Made by a program: the position numbers and the translations under genes. A DNA stretch of 64,000 nt from an uncultured Acidimicrobiia bacterium. GTDB lineage: Bacteria > Actinomycetota > Acidimicrobiia > IMCC26256 > JAENVU01. Of this stretch, positions 26,379 through 64,000 are shown piece by piece (within the stretch, counting starts at the first letter, position 1; each line of letters begins with the position of its first letter). Below the pieces are notes generated by a model. It was not told where the DNA came from. It saw nothing but the letters and a program-made list of their open reading frames with translations, and made no database searches. The stretch spans positions 451,647 through 515,646 of the forward strand of contig CAWFYL010000003.1 in NCBI GenBank assembly GCA_963820025.1, in the 5' to 3' direction.

Positions 26379-27837
26379 TCAGCCGGGGATCGAGGAGGTG
26401 CGGGCCGCGGCCGAGAGCTTGCGCGCGTCGGCTGGGAGGACGAAGCCCTTGGCGACCGCCTCGTTCGTCGCGTGGTGCCAGCGGCGCAGGAAGCGGTGGT
26501 GGTCCTGGTAGAGCGCGGCGAGCTTCGCGGCGCTGAACGGCGTCGTCGTCCCGACCAGCCGGCAGAGCAGCCCCGGACCGGACTGTCCCGCGTTGGTGAT
26601 CGTCGCCACCGGCGCATCGACCTCCGGGGTCCGGATCCCGCCGAGCACGTTGCCGTTCGCGTCGCTGCGCGTACGTCGTCGGCGAGAACGAGGTCACCTC
26701 GAGCCGCTTCGCCTTCGGCGGCTGGATCCCCCACCGGACCCATCGGGTCAGGCGCCGGAAGGCGCTCTGCACGATCAGGTAGCTCGGCCCGGTGTTGATC
26801 GGGACGGCACAGCCGATCGACGGAGGGTGCTGCATCGCGTCGAACAGCGCGCGGTCGGCCTGGCCGTCACCCACGTCGTTGAGCCCGACGCCGACGGTGT
26901 ACGCGTCGACGTGGGAGGTGCCCGCCATCTCCCAGAGTCGGAACGTCCGCGAGTCGTCCTGACGCGCGCCCTGGTTCACGTCGGTCTCGGACTGCAGGAC
27001 GATGACCGGCGCGGGGTTGTCGGTGCGGATCATGACCGCGGACGGCGTCGCGACGGAGGGGAGGGGGTCCTGCGACAGCGGCGCACCGCCCGACCCGCGG
27101 CTGTGGACGAGGAACCCGTCGAACGCGTGCGTGACGGGTTGGATCGCGTCGATGTAGGTGACCATGCGCGAGGCGGACTGCGACTCGCCATCCGCGAGGA
27201 GGCGCGTCGGACGGAGGCCACCGAGCACCGTGGCGGCGTCGTGGCGGATCGCCCCGCCGGCCTGGGTGAACATGTCGTAGGAGTAGCTGTCGCCCGGGTG
27301 CGAGAGCGACGCGTAGCGGACCGGGTCCGCGGCCTTCGCCGCGTTGAGCCCGATGGTCTGGGCGGACACCCCGACCCAGGCGTAGCCGCGACGGATCAGC
27401 TCGTTGTGCCCGAAGCCCCAGTCGACGCCGACATCGGACCCGATCGACACGTTGAGCCACTCGACGACGACGGTCCCGTTGAACTTCCTGGGATCGGTGG
27501 GCCGGTTCACGATCATGCGGGTCGTGAACGGCGCCTGCGAGCTCGGGGTGACCGACCATCGGCCGTCGCCGCCGAGCGCCGCGGTCGGGGTGTACGCGTT
27601 CGCGGTGCCGGAGAGGAAGAACTCCGACTGCTCGTACCCGACGCGCGAGAGATCGAACAGGGTCGTGAGCGCGACCGGCGTGCCATTGCCGCCCGTCACC
27701 GGACCGGACACGGCGGTCACCGGGACGGCCGACGCCGCCGGGACCGTCGTGAGCGCCAGCGCCGCCGCGAGCAGGCCCGTGATCGCCGCGCCCACCCGCG
27801 CCCGCGTCCCGACCGAATTGTGCCCAGTCCGCGCCAT
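26379..27837 (-). CDS. Secreted alpha/beta-hydrolase-domain protein (frameshift near 26666)
   Basis: Signal peptide, VVEWLNVS, GESQSA, GTSHVD, then DANGNVLGGIRTP in a second frame. Confidence 0.75.
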
Positions 27838-48948: not shown

Positions 48949-50013
48949 CTATGCGGAGGCGCGGTCCTGGGCGACGGCGTCGAGATCTGCGTACTCCTCG
49001 CCGGTGTCGACCCAGTCCTCGAACTGGATGACGCCGGTCTCGGTGAACCGCTCGCGCAGCCACCCGTCGGCCGCGTCGAGCAGCCCGAGCTTCTTGCAGT
49101 TCGGCACGATCTTCGAGAACAGCATCTGCTGGAAGATCTGTTGCTCGGGTGGGTTGTTGGCGTCGAGCGCCCGGCGCACGGCCTTGGGGTCGACGCCCAT
49201 CCGCTCCCAGACCTCGGCCTGCATGAACCGCTGCTGGAGCCGGCTCGCGGCGTCGAACGCGAACTCCTGGCGCTCGCGCATCTCCGAGTCGCTGAGCTCC
49301 CGGTAGTACTCCTGGAGCGACAGCACCCCGAACGCGACGTGGCGCGCCTCGTCCGCCATCACGTACCGCAGGAGCTGCTTGAGCAACGGCTCGTTCGTGA
49401 TGTGCTGCATCATCCCGAAGGCCGCGAGCGCGAGTCCCTCGACCATGATCTGCATGCCCAGGTAGGTGATGTCCCAGCGGCTGTCCGCCAGGATGTCGTT
49501 GAGGAGCAGGCGCAGGTTGTCGTTGATCCGGTACTGGCTCGTCAGCTTCTCGTCGAGGTACTTGGCGAAGACCTCGACGTGGCGGGCCTCGTCCATGACC
49601 TGGGTCGACGCGTAGTACTTGGCGTCGATCCAGGGCACGGTCTCGACGATGCGCGCGGTGCAGAGCAGCGCGCCCTGCTCACCATGGAGGAATTGCGAGA
49701 GCAGCGAGTTCTGCATCTCCACGCCGACCTCGCTCCACTCCTTCTCGCCGAAGTGCTTGACCGGCGAGTCGTCGACCGTCTGGAGGGTGCGGAAGCGCGC
49801 GGTCGTGCCGCCGGTGAGCTCGGCTGCGACCTTCTCCGCGTCGACGTCGATGGACCAGTCGAGGTCGGTGGTGACGTTCCACTGCGACGTCTTGGCCTTC
49901 TCGTAGAGCTTGCCGAGGGCGGGGCGCGAACGCTCGTAGTCCCAGGTGAAGGTGGTCTCGATGTCCGCCTGCACCTGCTCGAGCGTCGCGGGGTCGATCT
50001 TGGTGATGGTCAT
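48949..50013 (-). CDS. Ferritin-like diiron protein (AurF/RNR-R2-like superfamily)
   Basis: HGEQGAL, DEARHVE, VEGLA and DEARHVAF (two ExxH). Confidence 0.82.
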   Translation of the reverse strand: MTITKIDPATLEQVQADIETTFTWDYERSRPALGKLYEKAKTSQWNVTTDLDWSIDVDAEKVAAELTGGTTARFRTLQTVDDSPVKHFGEKEWSEVGVEMQNSLLSQFLHGEQGALLCTARIVETVPWIDAKYYASTQVMDEARHVEVFAKYLDEKLTSQYRINDNLRLLLNDILADSRWDITYLGMQIMVEGLALAAFGMMQHITNEPLLKQLLRYVMADEARHVAFGVLSLQEYYRELSDSEMRERQEFAFDAASRLQQRFMQAEVWERMGVDPKAVRRALDANNPPEQQIFQQMLFSKIVPNCKKLGLLDAADGWLRERFTETGVIQFEDWVDTGEEYADLDAVAQDRASA

Positions 50014-50618
50014 GATGGAACCTCCGTCGGGGCCGCCGCGTCGAGCAGCCGCTCGATCAGCGAACCCCACTGGTCATGATCGGGCGGGGAGAGCGCCAGC
50101 GCCCGGACCACCAGCGATCCGAGCGCGAGCGTCAGGCAGAAGCGCGTGAGCACGTCCGTGTCGATCGCGGGGTCGATCGCGCGATCGGACTTACTGTGCT
50201 CGACGAGGTCGGCGATCCGGTCGTGGCGTTGCGCGATCGCGTCGCGCAGCAGGACCGCGAGCTCCTCGTCGCGCTCGGACGCGACGACCGCGTCGAGCAG
50301 CAGCGGACGGTCGTGCTCGCGGAACGCGATGTGCGATCCGAGTGCCGCGAGCAGATCGCGCGGCGGGGTGTTCGCCGCCGCCTGCAGCAACGTCTCGACC
50401 TCGGCTGCGCTGCGGTCGGCGATCGCGGCGAGGAGCAGCTCGCGCTTGTCGCGGAAGTTCGCGTAGATCGCGCCGGTCGTGAGGCCCGCGGCCCGGGCGA
50501 TGTCCTGCACCCGGGCCCGCTCGTAGCCCTGCTCGACGAACACCTCGATCGCGGCTTCGACCAACCGGTCGCGGGTGCTCGGTTCGGTCCTGGTCGTCGG
50601 GGTCGTGGTGACGCTCAC
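50010..50618 (-). CDS. TetR family regulator
   Basis: RDRLVEAA..F...GY...IARAAGLTTGAIYANF. Confidence 0.88.
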   Translation of the reverse strand: MSVTTTPTTRTEPSTRDRLVEAAIEVFVEQGYERARVQDIARAAGLTTGAIYANFRDKRELLLAAIADRSAAEVETLLQAAANTPPRDLLAALGSHIAFREHDRPLLLDAVVASERDEELAVLLRDAIAQRHDRIADLVEHSKSDRAIDPAIDTDVLTRFCLTLALGSLVVRALALSPPDHDQWGSLIERLLDAAAPTEVPS

Positions 50619-50621
50619 GCG

Positions 50622-50649
50622 CTCCAAGATAACCGTTATTATCCTGGAG
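50622..50649. promoter_or_regulatory. Probable TetR operator in the divergent promoter
   Basis: CTCCAAGATAA-CCGTTA-TTATCCTGGAG, 10/11 arm match, AT-rich for this genome. Confidence 0.6.
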
Positions 50650-50684
50650 AACAAGGCGCCCTGGCGTGCGTAGGATGCGCCGCG

Positions 50685-51857
50685 ATGGCCGTCCCGCTCC
50701 CCGACGATCACTCGGTCAACCTGGTCCCGCCCGATCTCGACGAGATCCACGTCGTGATCCGCGGGGTGGCGACCGCGGGCGCGGCACCCGATGGGCTGAC
50801 CGAGGTGCAGCGCGCCGTCATCAACGCGACCGTCGAGTCGATGAGCGGGTTCGTGGTCGACGTCGGCGGGATGGACCCGCTCGGTCCGGACGAGTTCGCG
50901 GCGGCGATGCGGCGCCGGAACCTGGCGTTCCGCGAGCGCATGGTCCAGCTGATGCTCCTGCTCGAGATGCTGCTGACGCCCTTGCCGCCCGAGGTGACTG
51001 CGCGCGTCGAGCAGTACGCGGACGCACTCGGGGTCCACGAGGACATGTTGCGGGTCACCCATCAGATCGCGCGCGGCTCGCTCGGCCTCGCGCTCATCGA
51101 CTTCGAGCGCAGCGGCTACTTCCGCGAGATGCTCGAGCGTCCCCCCGACCACCTCCACACCGAGCGCGCACTCGCGGACGCGTGGGAGGGCTGTGCGAAC
51201 GACCCGGCGCTCGCGGCGCGGTGGGCGGTGCTCGGCGACTGCCCCGAGGGATCGCTCGGGAACGGCGTCTGGCGCTTCTACCGCGCTCGCGGGTTCGAAT
51301 TCCCGGGCATGCCGGGGAGCGCGCCGGTGACCCTCGCGCAGCACGACTGGATGCACGTGCTCGCCGACTTCGGGTCGACGGTCGAGTGCGAGATCGAGGT
51401 GTTCGGGTTCATCTCCCGCGCCAACGACAACCCCGCGGGCTTCTCGCTGCTCGCGATGGTCCTCGGGCTCTTCGAGACCGGCTACCTGTTCAACGCGGCG
51501 AAGGGCTTCTTCGAATACGACCGCGGCCACTTCTCCCGCGATGCGGAGCGGATGGCGGTCCGGCTCGCCGACGCGATGGCCCGAGGTGCGAGGGCGGCGT
51601 GGTGGCTCAACGACCACGGACGTCACTCCGACGTCGACTTCCTCGGCGTCGACTGGTTCGAATACGCGGATTGGCCGGTCAACCAGGTTCGGCGCTACTT
51701 CGGGGTACCGCCGAAGTCGGCCAAGGCGATCGAGTGCGGCTCGGTCACCGCCTGGGAGCCGGGCGGGATCTCGCCGTTCCAGTACGCCCACGGTCGCGAG
51801 GTCGTCGAGGCCGAGGGCGACGTGTACGAGTCCTTCGGCGCCGTGCCCACCTCATGA
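50685..51857 (+). CDS. Coq4-like metal-binding protein with a helical N-terminal domain
   Basis: P.GSLG..VWRFY, then HDWMHVLADFGSTVECE (HDxxH-x11-E); TAGGAT 8 nt before ATG. Confidence 0.65.
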   Translation: MAVPLPDDHSVNLVPPDLDEIHVVIRGVATAGAAPDGLTEVQRAVINATVESMSGFVVDVGGMDPLGPDEFAAAMRRRNLAFRERMVQLMLLLEMLLTPLPPEVTARVEQYADALGVHEDMLRVTHQIARGSLGLALIDFERSGYFREMLERPPDHLHTERALADAWEGCANDPALAARWAVLGDCPEGSLGNGVWRFYRARGFEFPGMPGSAPVTLAQHDWMHVLADFGSTVECEIEVFGFISRANDNPAGFSLLAMVLGLFETGYLFNAAKGFFEYDRGHFSRDAERMAVRLADAMARGARAAWWLNDHGRHSDVDFLGVDWFEYADWPVNQVRRYFGVPPKSAKAIECGSVTAWEPGGISPFQYAHGREVVEAEGDVYESFGAVPTS

Positions 51858-51911
51858 GGTCTCCCTCGGCCGGTTGCCGGGCTGCTGCCACTTCGTGGCC
51901 GAGGGCGCCAG

Positions 51912-52688
51912 ATGCCTGACGCGGCCATCTATGAACGCGACGGACACGTCGCGACCATCACCTACAACCGTCCGCACGTCCTCAACGCGATCAACGGCGA
52001 GATGCGCCAGGCCCTCAACGCGGCCTGGAACCGGTTCCGCGAGGACGAGGACGCGTGGGTCGCGATCGTCACCGGGACGGGCAAGGCGTTCTGCGTCGGC
52101 GCGGACCTGCGCGACGGCAAGGGCGCGGTCGGGGAGTGGCCCGGCAGCTTCTGGGACATCCCGACGATCAACTCGTTCGAGAGCGGGCTCGAGGTCTGGA
52201 AGCCGACGATCGCCGCAGTGAACGGCTACTGCCTCGGCTACGGGTTGACGACCGTCGCCCGCTGCGACTTCGTCATCGCGAGCGACACCGCCGAGTTCGG
52301 CTTTCCCGAGGTCCGGCTCGGTGTGCCGACGATCGTCGGGGCGATGCGCCTCCCGGGACGCATCGGTTGGTCGGACGCGATGGAGATGCTGCTCACCGGC
52401 GAGCGCTTCGACGCAGTGCGGGCGCGGGAGATGGGTCTCGTGTGGCGGATCGTGCCGCCCGACGATCTGCTCGCCGAGGCCCGGAGCCTCGCAGCCCGCC
52501 TCGTGCGCGCCGCACCGCTCGCGCAACGTGCGACCAAGGAGATGGCGGCCCGCGGTGCCCATCTGCCGTGGGAGGACGCGCTCCGGCTCGGCGAGTCGAT
52601 GCGGCGCGTCGTCGGCGGGACCGAGGACGCCGCCGAGGGGATGCGCGCTGCGCACGAGCGGCGCGACCCCGAGTGGCGCGGGCGCTAG
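51912..52688 (+). CDS. Enoyl-CoA hydratase/isomerase family protein
   Basis: NRPHVLNA, FCVGADL, IAAVNGYCLG and PEVRLG. Confidence 0.9.
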   Translation: MPDAAIYERDGHVATITYNRPHVLNAINGEMRQALNAAWNRFREDEDAWVAIVTGTGKAFCVGADLRDGKGAVGEWPGSFWDIPTINSFESGLEVWKPTIAAVNGYCLGYGLTTVARCDFVIASDTAEFGFPEVRLGVPTIVGAMRLPGRIGWSDAMEMLLTGERFDAVRAREMGLVWRIVPPDDLLAEARSLAARLVRAAPLAQRATKEMAARGAHLPWEDALRLGESMRRVVGGTEDAAEGMRAAHERRDPEWRGR

Positions 52689-53129
52689 GTGTCCGAAGCG
52701 CGCGAGGTCACCGCGTACGCGCGGTCCCTGGCCCCGCCCGAGGACGTCTGGCGCGATCTCGTCGACGCGACGGCATGGAGCCGGTGGTCGCGCATCCCGC
52801 ACGCGGTCCGCGAGCGCGAGGGGGTTCCTGCACCCGACGGCGTGGGCTCGATCCGGGCGCTCGGTATCGCCGGCCGGGGCAGCCGGGAGGAGGTCGTCGT
52901 GTTCGAGCCGCCCCGGCACTTCGCCTACGTGCTGCTGTCGGGGCTCCCGCTGGCGGAGTACCGCGCCGACGTCCGCCTCACGGCCGACGACGGTGGGACG
53001 TTGATCACCTGGCAGGGCCGGTTCGTGCCGAAGTGGGCGTGGTCCGGACCGTGGTTCGCGTGGTTCCTGCGCACCACGCTCACCGGCTTCGCCCGCGGCC
53101 TGGCCCGCGACGCCGCCCGCCCCCACTGA
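52689..53129 (+). CDS. SRPBCC/polyketide cyclase-like protein
   Basis: VW..L.D...WSRW, GVGSIR and EEVVVFEPP..FAY. Confidence 0.8.
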   Translation: MSEAREVTAYARSLAPPEDVWRDLVDATAWSRWSRIPHAVREREGVPAPDGVGSIRALGIAGRGSREEVVVFEPPRHFAYVLLSGLPLAEYRADVRLTADDGGTLITWQGRFVPKWAWSGPWFAWFLRTTLTGFARGLARDAARPH

Positions 53130-53150
53130 AGCCTGCCCCGCCCCGTCCCT

Positions 53151-53197
53151 CCGTCTGTGCGGAAGTGCGCGCATGACGTCGGGATGTGCACAAGCGG
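53151..53197. repeat. 47-bp REP-like palindrome homologous to the IS30 target site
   Basis: CCGTCTGTGC...GCACAAGCGG; 34/47 ungapped identity to the reconstructed empty site (manual count). Confidence 0.7.
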
Positions 53198-53211
53198 CGG
53201 ACGGGCGGTGG

Positions 53212-55240
53212 CTAGCCGGTGGTGGGGGCGAAGGGTGGGCGTCCGTAGTCGATCCAGGTCTTCGCGAGCGGGACCTGGCCGACGCCGGGCTTGCGCCAGT
53301 CGCACACCCCGCTTGGGAAGATCCGGCGCAGCCGCGCCGCCTGCGCGGCGGTGAGCTTCACCTTGTACTGCGCCGGGTCGGCGGCCGTCCGTCGGCACTT
53401 GAGCCGGTCGTTGATCAGCGGTGCGCCGGCCGCGGTGCGCGGATCGCCGAAGACGGGGTAGAGGTCGCGACAGGGACCGGGCTGCGTGTAGATGTTCGGG
53501 CCGCTCACGAGACGGCCGTTGGCATCCGTGCAGTTGTCCACTGCCTCCTTGGGCCGGACCCTGCCGCTCAGCCACCGGTCGAGCAGGACGATCGCATCGG
53601 CGGGGTTGAAGGCGTTGCCGGTGAGCTCGGCGGCGATGTTCCCGCTCGACGGACGGGTCCAGATCACCTCGTTCCGGTCGATCCTCCCGTCCTTCCCGCG
53701 CAGCCGCTCGCGGATGGTGAAGAGGCGGAAGCGGTCGTGGATGTCGCCGTACGGATCGCTGTACAGGTTGACGGTGATGATCGGCATGGTGCGCAGGGTG
53801 CCGCCGCCGGCCAGGACGCGCCCGGTCGCGTCAGGCGCGCCGGTTCTGTGCAGGGGTCGACTGCTCGCGCGCCGCGACCGGCTGACCGTTGATGTCGTAG
53901 CCGCCGATGTCCGCGTTGAGGTCGAGGAACTGGTCGACCGAGATCGTGCCCGCGTTCAGCGCCTCGAGCCCGTACTGCACGCCGACGTTGTCGAGCGGCC
54001 GGTTCGCGAACCCCGTCTCGGCATCGATGCCGAACTCGTTGCGGTTGAGGTCCTGCAGCGTGCAGCGGATCCCCTTGGGGTTCGTCGCCGAGAAGATCTC
54101 CGCGGCCGGGATGCGCGGGTCGCATCCCGTATACGGGTTGATCGTGCCGAGGAACGAGGAGATCCAGAGCGCACACGTCCCGACGGTGCGGTGGCCGTTG
54201 ACCGCGGCTTGCTGCGCAGTCGTGAAGCTCTTGCCCGGCCCCGCATAGAAGTGCGCCAGCAGGCCGCAGTCCGACACCCCCGGCGCGACCGAGATCGCGT
54301 CGGGGAACGGGATGACCGGTGACAGCGCGTCGAGGATGCCCGGGTAGTTCTGGGCGATCATCAGCTGCTGGATGGCGCCGCCCGAGGCGCCGGCACCGAT
54401 CGTGAACCGGGGCTGGCCGATCGTCTCCGCCACGTGCTCCTTGACCATCATCGCGGTCTCGGCCGACAGCACGTCGTTGCAGGAGGTCTGGAACGTGTTG
54501 AAGTTCGCCGTCGCGACCGCGTAGCCCTTGCTGAGCAGCGAGTCGTCGACGACGTTGGTCCCGAGCGGATCGCCCTGGGAGTAGGTGGTCCCGCAGCCGC
54601 CGCCGAACTCGTAGACGAGCCGGTGGTTCCAGCCGCTCGCGTCCGACAGCACCGCGAACGAGTACGGCGTGCGGTTGATGACACCGTGCTCGACGCGCAC
54701 GACGTAGGGCACCGCGACACCGTTGACGGTCACGGACGCCGCATCCCCGGGTGCGGCCCTGGCGAGCAGGGGCTTGAACGCGCCGCCGGTCGTCCGGTAC
54801 TGCAGTTCGACGGTCGGAGGTGCGGCGCAGGTCGCGTCCTCGCTCGCGGTGTCCGCGACCGTCGGGGTGGTGCACAGCAGGGGAAGGTGCGGGCCGGAGA
54901 AGAGCGGACCGCTCGTGGGGTGGCTGACCACCGCGAGGCTCGCCTTCGAGGCCCCGGCCGCCACGCCGATCCGGCTCGGCCCGTCAGGGAGTCCGGACAC
55001 CAGCCAGTCGCCCTTGCCGAACGACCGCGCGGTCAGCGGCTTGCCGGCGACGGTGAACTTCGGGGTCCTCGACGCCGGCTGCACGCGCACGAGCACGTCG
55101 CCGCCGGTGACGTACTGCGCCTTGGTGGAGATCGCTCGCACCTGGAAAGACTTCGTGGCCGCACCGGCAACTGGCGCGATCGTGACGAGGGCGGTGGCGG
55201 CCACCGCCGCGAGGACGAGGGGAACCAAGGGTCTGCGCAC
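53212..55240 (-). CDS. Secreted tannase-like / DUF6351-like hydrolase (frameshift at about 53832)
   Basis: Signal peptide, FGGGCG, GASGGAIQQ and DIHDRF; deleting one G turns TGAC into TAC and joins the two ORFs. Confidence 0.72.
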
Positions 55241-55377
55241 GAGGCGGGAGGCTACCGGGGCGCGGCGCCCGGGCGGCTTCGTCGGGATCGCGTGGTTCTG
55301 GCATCTCGATGACGCGCGCCGTTAGTGTCACGCGACCGCCCACGGCGTTCGGTGGGGCGGTCACGGGGGGAGTTGCG

Positions 55378-57729
55378 ATGCGCACGTTCGGAAGCCGCTT
55401 GGTGTTCGCGGGCGCGGTCGTCGCGGCCATGGCCGTCGGGCTGGCGGGCTGCCACCTGCACCACGGTGGTGGCCGTCCGAGCGGGGTCCACGTGGTCGCA
55501 CCGGCCGACCGCAGCCAGGCCCCGGCGTCGGGGGACGTCGCGGTGAACGTGCGGCTGGACGCGGGCCTGCGCGTCGGGTCGCTGCGGGTGTGGCTGCTGA
55601 CCGGGCCGTCGTGGCACCAGGCGCGCCGCGAGATCACCGGCCGGCTCGTCCGCGACGACCACGGGGCGACCGCCACGTTGCACGCGGCCGACCTGCAACC
55701 CGGTCTGACGACGGTCCGGGCGATCGCGACGCGCAACCGCGGCTCGAGCCACGGCCGTGACGCCGACGAAGGGATGAGCACGTTCTCATGGGAACCGGGC
55801 CTCGAACTCTCCACCGCGAGCCGGTGTGACGTGACGGTGGCGATCGAGTGCCTGATGCCGTTTCCGAACGACCTCTACACGGTCGCGGACGGCGCGACTC
55901 CGACCGGTCGGCGGGTGCACATCGATCCCGCGTCGATGAACGCCAACGCGTCCGGCGTGCGCGTCAACCCCGCCGAGTGGAACCGCAACGACGGATTCAG
56001 CCCGGGCTCGATGATCCTGAGCTACGTCCCGGGCCTCGACCTGGCCCGCACCGGCGCGGCGCCGATCACGGACATCGGCGCGTCGTTGGGCGCGGACCAG
56101 CCGATCGTGCTGCTCGACGCGACGACCGGGCAGCGCTGGCCGTTCTTCGCCGAGCTCGACTCCCAGGGCGGGCCCACGGACCCGCATTCCCTCATCATCC
56201 GTCCGGCCAGGAACCTGACCGAGGGTCACCGCTACGTGGTCGCGCTGCGCGAGCTGCGCGACGGGTCCGGCGCCTTGATCCCTGCGTCACGGGGCTTCCA
56301 GCTGTACCGCGACCGGATTCCGACGTTCTCCAGCGCCATCGAGGGTCGGCGTCCGCACTTCGAGCGCGTGTTCGCCGACCTGCACCACGCGGGGATCCGC
56401 CGGGGCGACCTCGACCTCGCGTGGGACTTCACGGTGGCCAGCGCCAAGAGCCTGGCCTCACGGGTCCTGCACATCCGCGACGACGCGTTCGCGTCGCTCC
56501 ACGGTGGCGTGCCGCAGTTCACGGTCACCCAGGTGGAGGACAACGTCAACGACCAGATCTTCCGTCGCGTGACCGGGACCTTCACGATCCCGAACTACCT
56601 CACCGGCAACGGAGGTTCGGGCAACGGCTTCAACTATGCCGCCGGTGCCGGTCCGGACGCGCTCCCCGCGCGCAACGGGGACCAGACCGCGGGGTTCATC
56701 TGCAACATCCCGCGCTCGGCGACCGCGGACGGGAGCGACCCCGTGCATCCCGCGCGCGGCGGCGTGTACGGGCACGGGCTGCTCGGGAGCAACGACGAGG
56801 TCAACGCGGGCAACGTCGAGACGATGAGCAACGCGCACAACTTCGTCTTCTGCGCGACGAAGTGGGCGGGCTTCTCCGAGGACGATCTCGGCGCTGCGGT
56901 CGCGTCGCTCCAGGACTTCAGCAACTTCCCGAAGGTCGCCGACCGCACCCAGCAGGGGTTCTTGAACTTCCTCTTCCTCGCCCGACTCGAGAAGGACCCC
57001 CGGGGCTTCGCGTCGAACCCGGCGTTCCAGGCCGGCGTGGCGCACACGCCGGTCTTCGACGGATCGGTCTTCTACGACGGGAACAGCCAGGGCGGGATCC
57101 TGGGCGGCGCCGTCACCGCGATCTCGACCGAGTGGACGCGCGCCGTCCTCGGCGTGCCGGGGATGAACTACAGCACGCTGCTCCAGCGCAGCTCGGACTT
57201 CGCGACGTACGAGGTCATCCTCGATCCTGCGTACCCGAACGAGATGGACCGCATGGTGATCCTGTCGGTGGTCCAGATGCTCTGGGACCGGGCCGAGGCC
57301 GACGGGTACGCGGAGCACATGACCGACCACCCGTATCCCGGGACGCCGGCCCACACCGTCCTGATGCACGTCGCCTTCGGCGACCACCAGGTCGCGAACG
57401 TGACCGCGGACGTCGAGGCGCGGACGATCGGCGCCCGGATCCTGCAACCCGCGCTCGCCCCGGGCCGCAGCCCGGATGTCGTCCCCTTCTGGGGGATTCC
57501 CGCGGTGCCGTCGCTGCCGTGGGCCGGTTCGGCCATGGTGATCTGGGACAGCGGCAACCCGCCGGCGCCGCTCGGCAACGCCGCACCGACGGGGCCGGCC
57601 TACGGCGAGGACCCGCACGAGAACCCGCGGCGCACGCCCGCGGCCCAGCTCCAGAAGTCCGACTTCCTGCAGCCGAACGGGGCGCTGGTCGACACGTGCG
57701 GGGGCGCACCCTGTCTCGCGCCCGGGTAG
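55378..57729 (+). CDS. Large lipoprotein with a beta-sandwich N-terminus and a lipase-like hydrolase domain
   Basis: Lipobox VGLAGC, GHGLLG, GNSQGG, GDHQV and DPHE. Confidence 0.72.
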   Translation: MRTFGSRLVFAGAVVAAMAVGLAGCHLHHGGGRPSGVHVVAPADRSQAPASGDVAVNVRLDAGLRVGSLRVWLLTGPSWHQARREITGRLVRDDHGATATLHAADLQPGLTTVRAIATRNRGSSHGRDADEGMSTFSWEPGLELSTASRCDVTVAIECLMPFPNDLYTVADGATPTGRRVHIDPASMNANASGVRVNPAEWNRNDGFSPGSMILSYVPGLDLARTGAAPITDIGASLGADQPIVLLDATTGQRWPFFAELDSQGGPTDPHSLIIRPARNLTEGHRYVVALRELRDGSGALIPASRGFQLYRDRIPTFSSAIEGRRPHFERVFADLHHAGIRRGDLDLAWDFTVASAKSLASRVLHIRDDAFASLHGGVPQFTVTQVEDNVNDQIFRRVTGTFTIPNYLTGNGGSGNGFNYAAGAGPDALPARNGDQTAGFICNIPRSATADGSDPVHPARGGVYGHGLLGSNDEVNAGNVETMSNAHNFVFCATKWAGFSEDDLGAAVASLQDFSNFPKVADRTQQGFLNFLFLARLEKDPRGFASNPAFQAGVAHTPVFDGSVFYDGNSQGGILGGAVTAISTEWTRAVLGVPGMNYSTLLQRSSDFATYEVILDPAYPNEMDRMVILSVVQMLWDRAEADGYAEHMTDHPYPGTPAHTVLMHVAFGDHQVANVTADVEARTIGARILQPALAPGRSPDVVPFWGIPAVPSLPWAGSAMVIWDSGNPPAPLGNAAPTGPAYGEDPHENPRRTPAAQLQKSDFLQPNGALVDTCGGAPCLAPG

Positions 57730-57759
57730 TAGGGCGGCGATCCGCATAACGTCCCCGGC

Positions 57760-58581
57760 ATGCGCGTCGCTGCGGTCCAGCTCACCTCGACGCCCGACAA
57801 GGACCGCAACGTCGCGGTCGCGGGGACCCTCGTCGCGGCCGCGGCCGACGCGGGCGCGGAGCTCGTCGCGTTGCCCGAGCTCTTCAACTGCTGGGGGAGC
57901 GCGCGCGAGCTGCGCGCCGCGGCCGAACCGCTCGACGGTCCGACGCTGACCACCGCGCGGGCCTGGGCGCGCGACCGGGCCGTCTGGCTGGTCGCGGGGA
58001 GCATCACCGAGCGGATCGAAGGCTCCGAGCTGCACGCCAACACGTCGTGCCTGATCGGACCCGACGGCGATATCGCCGCCACGTACCGCAAGATCCACCT
58101 GTTCGACGTCGACGTCGAGGGCTTCGCGTACCGGGAGTCGGCGACCGTGGTGCCGGGCGAGGAGATCGTCGTGGCGGACGCGGGCCCGCTCCGGATCGGG
58201 ATGTCGATCTGCTACGACCTGCGCTTCCCCGAGGAGTTCCGCATCCAGGCGCTGCGCGGCGCGAACGTCTTCACCCTGCCGTCGGCGTTCACCGCCCCGA
58301 CCGGCAAGGACCATTGGGAGCCGTTGCTCCGGGCCCGCGCGATCGAGAACCAGGTGTTCGTGATCGCGCCCGACCAGCGGGGCGCGAGCACACCGAAGCT
58401 GCAGTGGCACGGACGATCGATGATCGTCGACTCGTGGGGTGTCGTGCTCTCGCAGGCGCCCGACACCGAGTGCTTCATCACCGCGGACCTCGATCTCGCC
58501 GCGCAGCAGGACGTCCGCACCCGCATCCCGAGCCTCACCAACCGGCGGCCGGGAACCTACGACTGGCCGGAGGAACGGTGA
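57760..58581 (+). CDS. Nit1-like carbon-nitrogen hydrolase (deaminated glutathione amidase-like)
   Basis: LPELF, YRKIHLFD, SICYDLRFPE and HW..LLRARAIENQ. Confidence 0.88.
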   Translation: MRVAAVQLTSTPDKDRNVAVAGTLVAAAADAGAELVALPELFNCWGSARELRAAAEPLDGPTLTTARAWARDRAVWLVAGSITERIEGSELHANTSCLIGPDGDIAATYRKIHLFDVDVEGFAYRESATVVPGEEIVVADAGPLRIGMSICYDLRFPEEFRIQALRGANVFTLPSAFTAPTGKDHWEPLLRARAIENQVFVIAPDQRGASTPKLQWHGRSMIVDSWGVVLSQAPDTECFITADLDLAAQQDVRTRIPSLTNRRPGTYDWPEER

Positions 58582-59555
58582 CCGATCTCCAGATCTCGTG
58601 CGGCTTCGCGCCGGGACCCGACGTCGTGGCGCACGCGCAGCTGGCCGAGGAGCTCGGCTACGAGCGGGTGTGGCTGTTCGACTCCCCGGCGCTGTACCAG
58701 GACGTCTGGGTCGCGCTCGCCCGGGTGGCCGAGCACACCGAGCGCGTCGGGCTCGGGCCCGCGGTCCTCGTGCCCGGGCTCCGGCATCCGCTGGTGCAGG
58801 CGGCCGCGATCGCCACACTCGAATCGCTCGCGCCGGGTCGGGTGGTGGTGGCGATAGGTACAGGTTTCACGGGCCGGATGGCGCTCGGTCAGCGGGCCAT
58901 GCCCTGGGCCGACACCCGCACGTACATCGCCAACGTCCGCGGTCTCCTCGAGGGGGAGTCGATGGTCATCGACGGGGCGGTCGTGAAGATGATCCCGCCG
59001 CGGGGCTTCCTCCCCGAGCGTCCGATCTCGGTGCCGATCATCGTCGCGGCCAACGGGCCCAAGGGCTTCGAGGTTGCCCGCGAGCTCGGCGACGGGATCA
59101 TGACGATTGGCGGGACGGGCCCCGAGTTCCCGTGGTGCACGGTGCTCGCGTTCGGGACGGTGCTCGACCCGGACGAGGTGCCCGACTCGCCGCGCGTCTA
59201 TGACGCCGCCGGTCCCGCGCTCACGGTCGTGTACCACGGGATGTACGAGGCGGATCCGGAGCTCGTCGAGTCGCTCCCGGGAGGGGTCGAGTGGCGCGCC
59301 GCGATCGAGCAGGTCCCGTCGCACTCGCGGCACCTCGCGCTGCACGAGGACCACGTCGTGTACGTCACCGAGCGGGACCGCCCGCTGCTCTCGGGTGAGG
59401 GGATCACGAGCTTCACCTGGACCGGTCACGGCGCCGCGCTGCGCGAGCGCCTCGACGCGACCGCGGCGGCCGGGATGTCGGAGATCCTCTACGCGCCGAT
59501 CGGCTCCGACATCCCTCGTGAGCTCGAGGCGTTCATGGCCATGGCCCGCGAATGA
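58578..59555 (+). CDS. LLM-class (luciferase-like, F420/flavin-dependent) oxidoreductase
   Basis: AEELGYERVWLFDSP, GRVVVAIGTG and IIVAANGPK; GTGA overlap. Confidence 0.85.
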   Translation: MTDLQISCGFAPGPDVVAHAQLAEELGYERVWLFDSPALYQDVWVALARVAEHTERVGLGPAVLVPGLRHPLVQAAAIATLESLAPGRVVVAIGTGFTGRMALGQRAMPWADTRTYIANVRGLLEGESMVIDGAVVKMIPPRGFLPERPISVPIIVAANGPKGFEVARELGDGIMTIGGTGPEFPWCTVLAFGTVLDPDEVPDSPRVYDAAGPALTVVYHGMYEADPELVESLPGGVEWRAAIEQVPSHSRHLALHEDHVVYVTERDRPLLSGEGITSFTWTGHGAALRERLDATAAAGMSEILYAPIGSDIPRELEAFMAMARE

Positions 59556-59857
59556 GCACGGGTCGCGTCTGGCTCATCGCGTTCCTGCTGCTGCTCCTCG
59601 GTGGAGGCATCGGCCTGGGAGTCGGTGCGGCGACCGCGGACGACACGTCGACGACGACGAGCACGACGTCGACCACCGCGGCACCGACCACGTCCAGCAC
59701 GACGACGACCACGACGACCCGTCCGCGCATCTCGACGACGGTGACCCTCCCGACCACCACGACGACCGCGGCGCCGCCCGGCTCCACGAGCACGACCAGC
59801 TCGACCACGACCACGTCGTCCACGACGTCGACCACGACGACAACCACCCGCCCCTGA
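59552..59857 (+). CDS. Small membrane-anchored Thr/Ser-rich protein
   Basis: N-terminal TM then a poly-Thr tract; ATGA overlap. Confidence 0.6.
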   Translation: MSTGRVWLIAFLLLLLGGGIGLGVGAATADDTSTTTSTTSTTAAPTTSSTTTTTTTRPRISTTVTLPTTTTTAAPPGSTSTTSSTTTTSSTTSTTTTTTRP

Positions 59858-59862
59858 GCTCG

Positions 59863-59910
59863 TTTCGGCGTGACTTCGCGTCGTCAGGGCAACGCGAACT
59901 CACGCCGAAA
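59863..59910. repeat. 48-bp REP-like palindrome
   Basis: TTTCGGCGTGACTTCGCGT...ACGCGAACTCACGCCGAAA, same family as 27921-27968. Confidence 0.8.
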
Positions 59911-60016
59911 CGGGTACTTGCCGCAGCGAAGGACCGCCTGCGGCCGTCGGTCGACCGCAGTCCGGCAGTCGGCCGCAGGAGATCTTCGAAAAGGCAGCCG
60001 CAGGAGGTCTTGAGAA

Positions 60017-61606
60017 TCAGGAGAGCGCGACGAGGTCCAGGAGGTCGTCGGACCAGTAGTCGAGATCACCCTCGGGCATGAGCAGCACCCGTTGGGGCTC
60101 GAGCGACTCGACGAACTCGGCGTCGTGGCTCACGAGGACGATCGCGCCGGGCCAGGTCCGCAGTGCCCGGCCGATCGCGTCGCGTGACGGCGGGTCGAGG
60201 TTGTTCGTCGGCTCGTCGAGGAGCAACAGGTTGTGCTTGCCCGCGACGAGCTGGGCCAGCGCGAGCTTGGTCTTCTCGCCTCCCGATAGCGTGCCCGCGT
60301 CCTGGAACGCGATATCGCCGGACAAGCCGAACGTGCCGAGCAGCGTACGCAGCTGCTGGGGCGGGAGGCCTGCGGCGTCGCTCAGCAGGCCGAGGACCTC
60401 GCTGCCCGCGGTGATGCCCTCGTGCTCCTGCGCGTAGTAGCCCGCGGAGACGTTGTGCCCGAGGTCGACCGTTCCCGCGTCCGCGGTGGTGTGCCCGGCG
60501 AGGATGCGCATCAGGGTGGTCTTGCCCGCGCCGTTGAGGCCCATGACGAGCAGCCGCTCGCCCCGGCCGACCGTGAACTCGACGTCGGTGAAGACAGGAG
60601 GCCCGCCGTAGCCCTTCGTGAGCCCGTCCACGGTCAGCACCACGTTGCCGGCGCGCGGTGGGTCCGGGAACCTCACTGCGATCTGCTTCTCGCGCTTCGG
60701 CCCGGTGACGCGCTCCTTCTGGAGCTTGCTCACCCGCGTGTCGAAGGCCTTCGCCGTCTTCGCCCGCTTCGCGCTCTGGCCGCGCATCGAGTCGGCGAGG
60801 GTGCGGAGCCGGTCGATCTCGGCGCCCTGGCGCGTCGCGAGCCGGGCGAGACGCTCCTCGTCGGCCGCGCGCGCGGTGACGTACTGGGAGTAGGTGCCGC
60901 GGTACTCGGTGAGGACGCCGTCGTGCAGGTGCAGGACCCGGGTGATCGACGAGTCGAGCAGCTCGAGGTCGTGGCTCACGACGAGCAGCGCGCCGCGGTA
61001 CTGACGCAGGAACCCGACGAGCCACTCCTTCGCGTCGTTGTCCAGGTGGTTCGTGGGCTCGTCGAGCAGGAGCAGCTCGCTGCCCGCGAACAGGATGCGC
61101 GCGAGCTCGACGCGCCGGCGCTCACCGCCCGAGAGCGCGTCGATCGGGAGATCGAGCCGGCCCTCGGTGAGTCCGAGCCCGGCCGCGATCCGCCGGACCT
61201 CCGAGTCGGCCGCATACCCACCGGCATCGCGGAACTCCTCCTCGGCGCGCGCGAACTTCGCGACGTCCTTGTCGGTCGGGTGCTCCTCGATGCGCAGGCG
61301 CAGCTTCTCCACCCGCTGCGCCGCGGCGTCCAGCCCCCGGCCCGAGAGCACGTGCGAGAGCGCGGTGTTGTCGATGCCCGAGCCCCGCGGCTGCGGGTTC
61401 TGCGGCAGGTAGCCGAGCTCGTCCGAGCGCAGGACCACGCCGCCGGCGGCCGGCCCTTCACCGGCGATGACCTTGAGCATCGTGGTCTTGCCGGTGCCGT
61501 TCCGGCCGACCAGCCCGACCTTGTCCCCGGCGCGCAGCTTGAAGGACGCGCCCTCGAGCGTGACCCGGTTCCCGATCTCGATGCGGAGGTCGCGGACCTG
61601 CAACAT
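60017..61606 (-). CDS. ABC-F family ATPase
   Basis: Two NBDs (GRNGTGKTT, GLNGAGKTT), LLDEPTN twice, no TM segments. Confidence 0.9.
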   Translation of the reverse strand: MLQVRDLRIEIGNRVTLEGASFKLRAGDKVGLVGRNGTGKTTMLKVIAGEGPAAGGVVLRSDELGYLPQNPQPRGSGIDNTALSHVLSGRGLDAAAQRVEKLRLRIEEHPTDKDVAKFARAEEEFRDAGGYAADSEVRRIAAGLGLTEGRLDLPIDALSGGERRRVELARILFAGSELLLLDEPTNHLDNDAKEWLVGFLRQYRGALLVVSHDLELLDSSITRVLHLHDGVLTEYRGTYSQYVTARAADEERLARLATRQGAEIDRLRTLADSMRGQSAKRAKTAKAFDTRVSKLQKERVTGPKREKQIAVRFPDPPRAGNVVLTVDGLTKGYGGPPVFTDVEFTVGRGERLLVMGLNGAGKTTLMRILAGHTTADAGTVDLGHNVSAGYYAQEHEGITAGSEVLGLLSDAAGLPPQQLRTLLGTFGLSGDIAFQDAGTLSGGEKTKLALAQLVAGKHNLLLLDEPTNNLDPPSRDAIGRALRTWPGAIVLVSHDAEFVESLEPQRVLLMPEGDLDYWSDDLLDLVALS

Positions 61607-61647
61607 GTGCCCATGGTCGCACGGGCCCCCTGATCCTCCCGCGCGGT

Positions 61648-61692
61648 TTGCGACCCGGGGCGTCGGGGCTATCATGGTTACTCGGTAGTAAC
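61648..61692 (+). promoter_or_regulatory. Sigma70-type promoter and palindromic operator of the acyl-CoA dehydrogenase
   Basis: TTGCGA-16-TATCAT followed by GTTACT-CGGT-AGTAAC (61677-61692). Confidence 0.6.
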
Positions 61693-61734
61693 TTGAGTGT
61701 CCACCACCGGCAGGGTCAGTCCAAGGAGACCGGA

Positions 61735-62959
61735 ATGAGCGATTTCTCGCTGGATCTCAACGAGGACCAGCTGCAGATGCAGAAGTGGGTCCACGACTTC
61801 GCGGAGAACGTCATCCGCCCCGTCGCCGCCGAGTACGACGAGAAGGAGGAGACGCCCTGGCCCGTCATCCAGGAGGCGGCCAACATCGGCCTGTACTCCC
61901 AGGAGGCGATGACCAGCTTCTTCAGCGACCCGACCGGCCTGACGTTCCCGATCATCAGCGAGGAGCTCACCTGGGGCTGCGCCGGCATCGCGCTCGCGAT
62001 CTTCGGCACCACCCTCGGGGTCTCCGGCATCCTCGGCAGCGGCACGCCCGAGCAGATCGGCGAGTGGATCCCGCAGTGCTTCGGCACCCCGGACGACATC
62101 CACCTCGCGGCGTTCGCGGTCACCGAGCCCGACGCCGGGTCGGACGTGAGCAGCCTGCGCACCCGTGCCGTCTACGACGAGGCCAAGGACGAGTGGGTGA
62201 TCAACGGGGTGAAGACCTGGATCACGAACGGGGGGATCGACAAGGTCCCGACGGTGCACGTCGTCGTCGCGTCGGTCGAGCCGGAGCTGAAGGCGCGTGG
62301 CCACGCGAGCTTCGTGATCCCGCCGGGCACGCCCGGTCTCAAGATGGGCCAGAAGTTCCAGAAGATGGGGATCCGCGCGAGCCACACCGCGGAGGTCGTC
62401 CTCGACGACGTGCGCGTCCCCGGCTCGTGCCTGCTCGGCGGCAAGGAGAAGCTCGACGAGCGCTTCGCCCGGGCCCGTGAGGGCAAGCACAACCGGGTCC
62501 AGGCCGCGATGAGCACGTTCGAGGCGAGCCGGCCGCTCGTCGGCGCGCAGGCGCTCGGCATCGCGCGGGCCGCGTACGAGTACGCGCTCGACTACGCGAA
62601 GGAGCGGAAGGCCTTCGGCCGGGCGATCATCGAGAACCAGGCGATCGCGTTCAAGCTCGCCGACATGAAGATGGAGATCGACGCGTCCCGCCTGCTCGTC
62701 TATCGGGCGTGCTGGATGGCTCGCAACGGCAAGCAGTTCGTCGCTGGCGAGGGCTCGATGAGCAAGCTCAAGGCCGGCGAGGTGGCGGTCTGGGCGACCG
62801 AGCAGGCGATCCAGATCCTCGGCGGCTACGGCTACGTGCGCGACTACCCGGTCGAGAAGTGGCACCGCGAACGCGAAGATCTACACGATCTTCGAAGGCA
62901 CCTCTGAGATCCAGCGCCTGGTCATCGCTAGGGCCATCTCTGGCGTGCATATCAAGTAG
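61735..62959 (+). CDS. Acyl-CoA dehydrogenase (frameshift near 62875)
   Basis: AVTEPDAGSD, NG.KTWIT and QILGGYGY; removing one A restores RDAKIYTIFEGTSEIQR. Confidence 0.9.
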
Positions 62960-62969
62960 TCGCCAGTCC

Positions 62970-63013
62970 GTAGGGTTCGCCTGATTCGGGCGTCTATCCC
63001 TACTCATCCCTAC
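62970..63013. promoter_or_regulatory. Candidate integrase arm-type binding sites
   Basis: ATCCCTAC at 62996-63003 and 63006-63013, inverted GTAGGG at 62970-62975. Confidence 0.5.
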
Positions 63014-63033
63014 AACTGCTACGGTCGCCTGCG

Positions 63034-64000
63034 ATGGCGACAGTGCGCGAGCGCAAACCAGGGGTCTGGGAAGTCCGGGTCTTCACCGGACGGAACGCGC
63101 ACGGCCGACCGACCCAGGTGAGCCGCACCGTGCGCGGTGGCAAGCGGGATGCTCAGCGGGTCGCGGCGCAGCTCGAAGCGCGTCCACCCTCCAACGCCGC
63201 GGGTCGCACGGTCGCCGACGTCCTGGCCGCGTGGCGCGAGGTCAACCAGGACGTCTGGTCCGAGGCAACGCGGCGCGACTGCGAGCCGCGCCGACCGGGT
63301 GGCCGAGGACGCTATCGGCCGGATTGCAGTTGCCCGACTCGGTGTAGGCGATGTCGAGCGGTGGCACGCCCGCATGCGCCGAGCGCACGTCGGAGAAGCC
63401 GCGATCCGCAGCCGCCATTCCGTCCTCCGCGCTTCCCTGGCGCAGGCCGTGCGCTGGGGTTGGGTTGCGGTGAACGTCGGGAGCGCTGCTCGCCTGCGTC
63501 GCTCGAAGAAAGCGCCCCGTGCCGCGATGACTGCAGACGAGGTCCGTGCGGTCATCGCGGCGGCGCGCGAGATCGACCCGGCCGCCGCGTTGGCGTTGCG
63601 ACTCGCCGCGGTTGCAGGGGCTCGCCGTGGGGAGCTCGCCGCGTTGCGATGGGACGACCTGGAGATCGCCACCGGCCGTCTGACGATTGACAGCAGCGTC
63701 GAGGTGATCCGCGCCGGCGATGGGGGCGCCCCGACGCTGCAGGACGCGCCCACCAAGACCGGCGACCGGCGGCTTGTGCGGCTCGACCCGATGACGCTCG
63801 CAGAGGTGGTCGCGCTTCGAGCTGCGCATCAGGACATCAGCCCGTACATGTTCTCGCTGACGCTCGGACCCCCGAACCCCGATCGCATCGGCTGGTGGTG
63901 GCAGCGCGCGCGGAAGCTGTCTGGCATCGACCCGCGCTGGCGTCTGCACGATCTCCGCCACTGGACTGCGACGACTGCGATCACGAGTGGTCACGATGTT
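63034..64000 (+). CDS. int: Tyrosine integrase, runs off the window; frameshift near 63283
   Basis: Arm-binding-like N-terminus (VWEVRV), then GARRGEL, TKT and LHDLRH in the second frame. Confidence 0.9.

Follow-up and report, generated by a model that had tools for sequence, protein, structure and literature searches.

The window analysed in this study is the 64,000-nt stretch C3:451647–515646 from the 4.42-Mb, 7-contig and 98.5%-complete assembly (G000) of an uncultured Acidimicrobiia bacterium. Its right-hand end very probably lies within a 14,901-bp integrative mobilizable element (IME) that was inserted by tyrosine-integrase-mediated site-specific recombination into the 3′ end of an acyl-CoA dehydrogenase (ACAD) gene. 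A first-pass annotation of the same letters had proposed an attachment (att) junction of a prophage or an integrative and conjugative element (ICE) at this gene, with cargo beyond the window; the second junction is found 14,901 bp downstream, and the genes between the two junctions point to an integrative mobilizable island with a MobF relaxase instead of a prophage or an ICE. Positions beyond the window are given in L001, a 19-kb stretch around the junction, in which a window position equals the L001 position plus 61354.

The target gene, the two junctions and the replacement tail

The body of the target gene, which is host DNA and encodes an MCAD/SCAD-like ACAD, is an open reading frame (ORF) that starts at ATG 61735 and extends on the plus strand to 62869 in reading frame 1. 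The closest solved structures are 1ukw and MCAD, and orthologues with 66–98% identity are present in all 41 related genomes used for the closest-genome comparison. Close to the end of the gene is the 24-nt attL core (62881–62904, plus strand; C TAC ACG ATC TTC GAA GGC ACC TC), which encodes YTIFEGTS including the presumed catalytic Glu codon; by alignment with MCAD and from what is known of the family, we take this Glu to be the counterpart of the MCAD catalytic base Glu376. The element may therefore exploit the most constrained stretch of the ACAD gene, much as other elements use tRNA genes. On the host side, a perfect 8-bp inverted repeat found by repeat search, CGAAGATC and GATCTTCG around TACAC (62874–62894, plus strand), overlaps the core in the attB sequence, and its two halves are candidate core-type binding sites of the integrase.

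The tail of the gene after the core (62905–62960, plus strand), which begins with the final base of the Ser codon TCT and ends with the stop codon TAG at 62958–62960, is recoded with rare codons. Its last 18 sense codons read SEIQRLVIARAISGVHIK, which is the normal ACAD ending that the first-pass annotation had recognized, and the five codons that had been singled out there as rare are rare genome-wide, with shares within their synonymous families of 1.1% (TCT), 2.6% (GCT), 2.6% (AGG), 1.1% (TCT) and 9.4% (CAT). The codon adaptation index (CAI) of the 18-codon tail is 0.39. Compared with 20,000 windows of 18 codons drawn at random from the genome, this lies at the 2nd percentile, and each of the 359 windows of the ACAD body has a higher value. 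What the annotation had not recognized is a break in frame between body and tail: an extra A at 62870/62871 (GAAC at 62869–62872, plus strand, compared with GAC in relatives) shifts the conserved tail NAKIYTIFEGTSEIQRLVIARAISGVHIK* to the frame of 62870, +1 relative to the gene body, and because of this one extra base the body frame ends early at TGA 62905–62907 (...WHREREDLHDLRRHL*).

When window positions 62700–63040 were compared with the whole genome by blastn and direct reading, a second copy of the ACAD 3′ end was found on the same strand at C3:529425–529506, with 83% identity over 82 nt; this is the displaced copy that the first-pass annotation had suggested looking for downstream. The attR core within it (L001 16428–16451, plus strand; C3:529428–529451) is identical to the attL core over all 24 nt, and the spacing of the two cores gives the element length of 14,901 bp. 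The displaced tail encodes YTIFEGTSEIQRLVIARAISGIHIK* and ends with TAG at L001 16504–16506 on the plus strand. The two tails differ at 13 of 75 bases and share 24 of 25 residues, with ten codons changed synonymously and one change of V to I; mostly synonymous differences are expected if the copy carried by an element is selected to encode a working ACAD C-terminus.

Comparison with element-free relatives, which had also been recommended, shows which of the two tails is native. The tail of G004, an element-free genome of the same genus, is nearly identical to the displaced copy (...GCG CGT GCG ATC TCC GGC ATC CAC ATC AAG TAG CCGA) and not to the integrase-proximal tail, and in G008 the ACAD gene is directly followed by an NAD-epimerase gene, the same gene that follows the displaced tail in G000. 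Because of the G004 tail and the G008 gene order, the displaced copy is regarded as the original end of the host gene, and the integrase-proximal tail as the one that came with the element. Relative to G004, the displaced copy has mainly C-to-T changes at third positions (TTG, GGT, ATT), which suggests drift since displacement and hence a fairly old insertion. Thus, direct repeats are present at both ends, the integrase gene adjoins attL, and the site is uninterrupted in G008 and G004, all as in a site-specific integrative element. The tails of G008 (L005) and G006 (L007), neither of which has an integrase at the site, contain element-like codons: AGA in G008 and GCT CGA ... TCT GGC GTG ... 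TAGTCGCC in G006. Such tails may come from earlier elements and persist after element loss.

The integrase gene starts at ATG 63034, and the gap between the ACAD stop codon and this start is 73 nt. As the first pass had noted, no tRNA is at hand: ARAGORN found no tRNA gene in window positions 50000–64000 or in L001, which rules out a tRNA as the integration target. The gap contains two copies of ATCCCTAC (62996–63003 and 63006–63013, plus strand), 10 nt apart from start to start, and an inverted copy of the repeat core, GTAGGG (62971–62976, minus strand, by direct reading), in keeping with the tandem repeat and inverted copy described before. The ATCCCTAC pair was recovered by repeat search and is kept, in the same position, in about 20 of 24 homologous loci. 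A second pair, CATCCCTAC-N3-CATCCCTAC, is present at the other end (L001 16313–16333), inside the element and about 95–115 nt upstream of the attR core. TCCCTAC occurs five times in the 19 kb, where 0.65 copies are expected and where five were reached in none of 200 shuffles, and four of the five copies fall in the two att arms. Because repeat pairs are found just inside both ends, the attP reconstructed from the two junctions has paired arm-type sites on either side of the core, and the pairs at 62996–63013 and L001 16313–16333 may serve as the P′-arm and P-arm binding sites of the integrase, respectively.

Based on these features, we propose that the element has an attP in which the final 25 ACAD codons, starting with the Tyr of YTIFEGT and ending at the stop codon, are mimicked, with a pair of ATCCCTAC arm-type sites to either side. 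Recombination inside the 24-nt core common to attP and the gene would join the ACAD body to the recoded tail of the element at attL and would displace the native ACAD tail 14.9 kb downstream at attR. Since the gene body is joined to a recoded tail, the ACAD protein sequence would be preserved. The most likely site of strand exchange is where the homology block begins on its left side (CTACACG), flanked by the repeats of CGAAGATC-TACAC-GATCTTCG, because elements that restore a gene generally carry everything downstream of the crossover. Another candidate crossover is AGGCACC, located between the imperfect repeats cGATCTtcGA and TCcgAGATCc; the GAA/GAG and ACG/ACC differences that distinguish attL from attR in the pairs compared fit either position.

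Frameshifts in the target gene, the integrase and the relaxase

In addition to the shift in ACAD, the assembly has one frameshift in the integrase gene and two in the relaxase gene next to it. The integrase gene (L001 1680–2778, plus strand) is split between two frames. Its N-terminal part (MATVRERKPGVWEVRVF...RRD; 63034–63279, plus strand) aligns with the intact integrases of 365–373 amino acids (aa) at loci L034 and L035, and its catalytic part (Pfam Phage_integrase) extends on the plus strand from 63281 to the end of the window at 64000 and on to window-equivalent position 64132 (L001 2778). Between the two parts, at 63280 on the plus strand, comparison by eye with L034 and L035 revealed a stray T where the homologues have TAC (Tyr): G000 reads GAC T GCG AGC, and the integrases of L034 and L035 read RRDYASR and KRDYAGR, respectively. 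With PF00589 the score is 68.7 bits (cut-off 27.1), and the translated C-terminal frame contains the motifs ARRGEL, HDLRHW and RVYAH, in line with the tyrosine recombinase signature R...HxxR...Y. The MobF/TrwC relaxase-helicase gene (L001 2796–6004, minus strand), with an NCBIfam MobF score of 246 bits against a cut-off of 100, lies in three frames: one encodes TrwC, another positions 1–141 of AAA_30, and a third AAA_30 from position 142 to its end together with SH3_13 and UvrD_C_2.

All four shifts are probably artefacts of long-read assembly. To estimate the frequency of such shifts, 220 long ORFs (every sixth of 1317) were used as tblastn queries for paralogue matches, and a frameshift was called where the frame switched while query and subject coordinates remained contiguous, over about 1.1 Mb of non-self covered coding DNA. 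This screen recovered the ACAD site and gave 50 frameshift-like sites under strict and 89 under loose counting, an estimate of about one per 12–22 kb; of the 50 strict sites, 38 (76%) show a single extra base. A free-living genome that is 98.5% complete would hardly bear so many shifts. Their number fits long-read consensus errors, and the assembly looks like a long-read metagenome-assembled genome (MAG) with residual indels. Two candidate frameshift sites are also present inside the window, near 26680 and 30382 (C3:478326 and C3:482028).

At the ACAD junction, the sequence CACCGCG-AC[GT]C[GC]AAGATC is present in frame at all 24 other element loci, and relatives of the genus also have GAC in frame; programmed frameshifting was rejected because neither these 24 homologous junctions nor the genus relatives have the extra base. 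Contigs from four soil and rhizosphere metagenome runs are likewise free of the extra A at 62870, but they are ACAD fragments of relatives and uninformative on G000. Among the public sequencing runs searched for the window, none contains the window or the organism, the best word share being 0.16.

Several observations weigh against the proposed insertion, or against its being a functional one. The replacement tail does not continue the reading frame of the ACAD body, and the integrase and the relaxase are broken by one and two shifts, respectively. These four shifts lie within 4.5 kb, which is denser than the genome average, and the cargo genes are spared, so real decay of the mobility genes is possible. 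The choice between the two crossover positions is a guess. The displaced tail, which should be native, has a CAI of only 0.55 (7th percentile), so it is either drifting or was itself derived from an earlier element.

The element could accordingly be a dead, fixed island in which the shifts are real, the ACAD copy has lost its catalytic C-terminus, and the element is immobile while its cargo is kept. For at least some of the shifts we consider this unlikely, though well worth weighing. It would account for the clustering of the four shifts in the mobility genes beside cargo ORFs of 725, 1120 and 215 aa that are all intact, and for the shift in the integrase, which resembles a loss of 2 nt and is unlike the typical artefact of one extra base. 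The C-to-T drift of the displaced tail from the G004 sequence, which suggests an old insertion, and the integrase remnants beside ACAD in two relatives (G001 and G033) point in the same direction. On the other hand, frameshift-like splits are common throughout the sampled coding DNA, and most of them are of the same type as the ACAD shift; in long-read MAGs of the same genus, ACAD is likewise split, elsewhere in the gene; the single-base shifts are not accompanied by any premature stop or deletion; and all 41 relatives have a conserved ACAD, which the other 24 element-bearing loci all keep in frame. We favour an element that would restore its target gene and may be mobile at present, with shifts that probably arose in assembly: the tail keeps 24 of 25 residues and is in frame in all 24 other loci, and the frame is broken in G000 by the extra A located 10 nt upstream of the core.

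The integrase clade and its target site

With the catalytic part of the integrase as the query against one genome per species, 47 loci were identified. The ACAD motif FEGTSEIQ is found a few hundred nt upstream and on the same strand in 28 of the 30 other loci whose integrases are at least 45% identical (45–71%) to that of G000; in most of them, the motif is about 400 nt before the match, i.e., just ahead of the integrase start. In most of these loci, the ATCCCTAC pair is also retained, and a conserved CTGCTACGGT stretch comes ahead of the start codon. Homologues with about 31% identity, from Microthrixaceae and others, are without the motif, and five such integrases are located about 450 nt past tRNA-Thr(TGT). 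The first-pass annotation had asked whether homologous integrases also follow this gene or sit at tRNA genes; only these distant cousins do the latter. The integrase clade to which the G000 protein belongs is, from these sequence comparisons, apparently specialised on the ACAD site, widespread in Acidimicrobiia and associated with varied cargo.

Among the 41 closest genomes, an integrase gene or its remnant follows ACAD in G000, G021, G015, G001 and G033, of which the last two have the remnants mentioned above. Pairs of attL and attR delimit elements of 16.2 kb with metal-uptake cargo in G050, of 16.1 kb with genes for sulfotransferases, an aldo-keto reductase and a luciferase-like oxidoreductase in G048, and of 10.5 kb in G051, as well as a 6.9-kb remnant in G053 (same genome as G001). 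In all eight attR-type copies, which come from five genomes, homology begins at the same base, CTACACG. The reading in which a cassette entered by homology-facilitated or illegitimate recombination and left the duplicated tail as a scar, with an unrelated integrase gene as neighbour, is very improbable given this identical boundary, the distance of only 73 nt between integrase and junction, the conserved paired arm repeats inside both ends and the joint occurrence of integrase clade and site in 28 of 30 loci.

Two loci show further traces downstream of ACAD. In G052 (L084 430–6470; G052:C10:529929–535969), four displaced ACAD tails fall in tandem inside a 6-kb stretch, and element-type sequence comes before each of them. 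The arrangement resembles serial integration with subsequent decay (accretion) at one site, as would be expected of a site used repeatedly. In G030 (L018 2647–2666 and 3929–3948), a second YTIFEGT-coding motif is found 1.28 kb downstream of ACAD and is not followed by the SEIQ codons; an old element may have left it as a short scar.

A search of the tail peptide against deposited phages with tblastn identified Rhodococcus phage Sleepyhead (MK967380). Its gene 37, annotated as 'hypothetical protein', ends with ...AKILDIFEGTQQIQQLIVARRLLGKSSAELK (also read as ...AKILDIFEGTQQIQQLIVARRLLG..; L085 2372–3842, MK967380 27953–29423), which mimics an ACAD C-terminus, and next to it is gene 38, which encodes the tyrosine integrase. 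No att site of Sleepyhead is described in the publication on these phages; the end of gene 37 probably represents an undescribed attP that targets the same motif in the 3′ end of an ACAD gene. Sleepyhead is a 44-kb temperate phage, unlike the island of G000, and its integrase is only about 31% identical to that of G000 over the catalytic domain, so its use of the site looks like an independent specialisation. We offer, as a tentative and more doubtful extension, that the codons of the ACAD motif (I-[YF]-T-I-F-E-G-T-S-E-I-Q) might be a recurrent, tRNA-like landing pad across Actinomycetota that at least two unrelated lineages of tyrosine integrases adopted independently, and that serial integrations might overwrite the last 25 codons, in which case 'empty' tails such as those of G008 and G006 would be scars.

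Class of the element, related systems and cargo

Besides the integrase and relaxase genes, the mobility region contains an ORF for an HTH_17 Xis-like (excisionase-like) protein (L001 6119–6334, minus strand; Pfam). When every large ORF of the 14.9-kb element was scanned with Pfam, no VirB4, type IV coupling protein (T4CP), FtsK, TraB, type IV secretion system (T4SS) or replication gene was detected, and an ICE or actinomycete integrative and conjugative element (AICE) was rejected because an own conjugative translocation apparatus and a replication gene were not found in these scans. No capsid, terminase, portal, repressor or other virion or packaging domain was detected among the Pfam-scanned ORFs (PHROGs were not run), and the G000 integrase shares no more than 32% identity with its closest phage counterparts. 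The occurrence of this integrase family in phages and the ACAD-tail mimic beside the Sleepyhead integrase might speak for a prophage or phage satellite, but this is a most improbable reading of an element of only 14.9 kb that carries a MobF relaxase-helicase and none of the virion domains looked for. Because of its gene content, i.e., an integration/excision module and a relaxase with no own T4SS or translocase among the ORFs scanned, the element is best called an IME, which would be mobilized with the help of a conjugative element.

The strategy of replacing the 3′ end of a target gene is already well known. In Escherichia coli, the e14 element and phage 21 target icd, the isocitrate dehydrogenase gene: their tyrosine integrases insert them at its 3′ end, for which they carry diverged, mostly synonymous replacement codons. 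The element of G000 resembles them in that attB is in the 3′ end of a conserved metabolic gene, that the enzyme would be left intact and that the native tail is found at the far junction. It differs in its ACAD target, in its 25-codon tail that includes the motif with the presumed catalytic Glu, in its Acidimicrobiia host and in being a relaxase-bearing island, and its integrase, unlike in the e14/phage 21 setting, is not close to any known phage integrase. ICESt1 and ICESt3, together with derived IMEs and cis-mobilizable elements (CIMEs), insert into the 3′ end of fda in Streptococcus thermophilus. Insertion in the 3′ end of a protein-coding housekeeping gene is common to both cases, and the tandem att copies left by accretion and decay of the ICESt1/ICESt3 family are comparable to the four tails of G052; the phylum, target gene and integrase clade are different, and mobilization by a helper conjugative system is only proposed for the element of G000. 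Like other IMEs, the element has Int, Xis and a relaxase and lacks its own mating apparatus. AICEs of the pSAM2 type are 9–24 kb in size, integrate in tRNA genes and possess an FtsK/TraB-type translocase and a replication gene. The element shares with them its small size, its actinobacterial host and the position of the tyrosine integrase and Xis genes next to the att site, but it has a MobF relaxase-helicase in place of the translocase and replication gene, which were not found.

In the literature that we searched, which left the TIGER/Islander target lists outside, no tyrosine-integrase attB in the 3′ end of an ACAD gene is described, and the only ACAD case is a serine-integrase insertion in fadE of Mycobacterium abscessus. 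There, prophiT49-3 is integrated at attB-21 in fadE (MAB_1851), near nt 280 of the 1140-nt gene, which is probably inactivated and receives no replacement tail (PMC9934374). It is like the element of G000 in targeting an ACAD gene of an actinobacterium, and unlike it in that the G000 element has a tyrosine integrase and a replacement tail.

What is new is thus the target gene and the integrase clade. They add to the short list of restored targets a protein-coding attB in the active-site-encoding end of a core beta-oxidation-type enzyme, and they define a clade with conserved core and arm sites across uncultured soil Acidimicrobiia. The position downstream of ACAD is a simple marker for islands and their cargo in a group for which there are no genetic tools, and the integrase and its sites are a candidate site-specific integration system for high-GC Actinomycetota. 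A caution also follows: indels in long-read MAGs can make an intact att junction resemble a pseudogene.

The cargo, which had been presumed to lie beyond the window, occupies L001 7922–16109 (window-equivalent 69276–77463). On the plus strand, it encodes an HExxH/M50-like membrane protease fused to two cyclic nucleoside monophosphate (cNMP)-binding domains (L001 7922–10099), a small Cys-rich protein with a Zn-ribbon (L001 10130–10339), a class III nucleotide cyclase (Guanylate_cyc) with an AAA_16 STAND ATPase and tetratricopeptide (TPR) repeats (L001 12083–15445), and a Crp-like regulator (L001 15462–16109); the protease, cyclase and Crp-like proteins were assigned with Pfam. By analogy, the combination of a sensor-cyclase and a cNMP-gated effector resembles the logic of Pycsar and CBASS. 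A Pycsar defence system, which has a PycC-family cyclase beside a cNMP-binding effector, was considered and rejected: PADLOC matched the cargo only via the generic cNMP-binding domains of the protease and the Crp-like protein, and no PADLOC model matched the cyclase-STAND protein. Two stretches of the island, L001 6400–7900 and 10300–11400, contain no confident ORF or Pfam match and are lower in GC content, at 0.62–0.65 compared with about 0.70.

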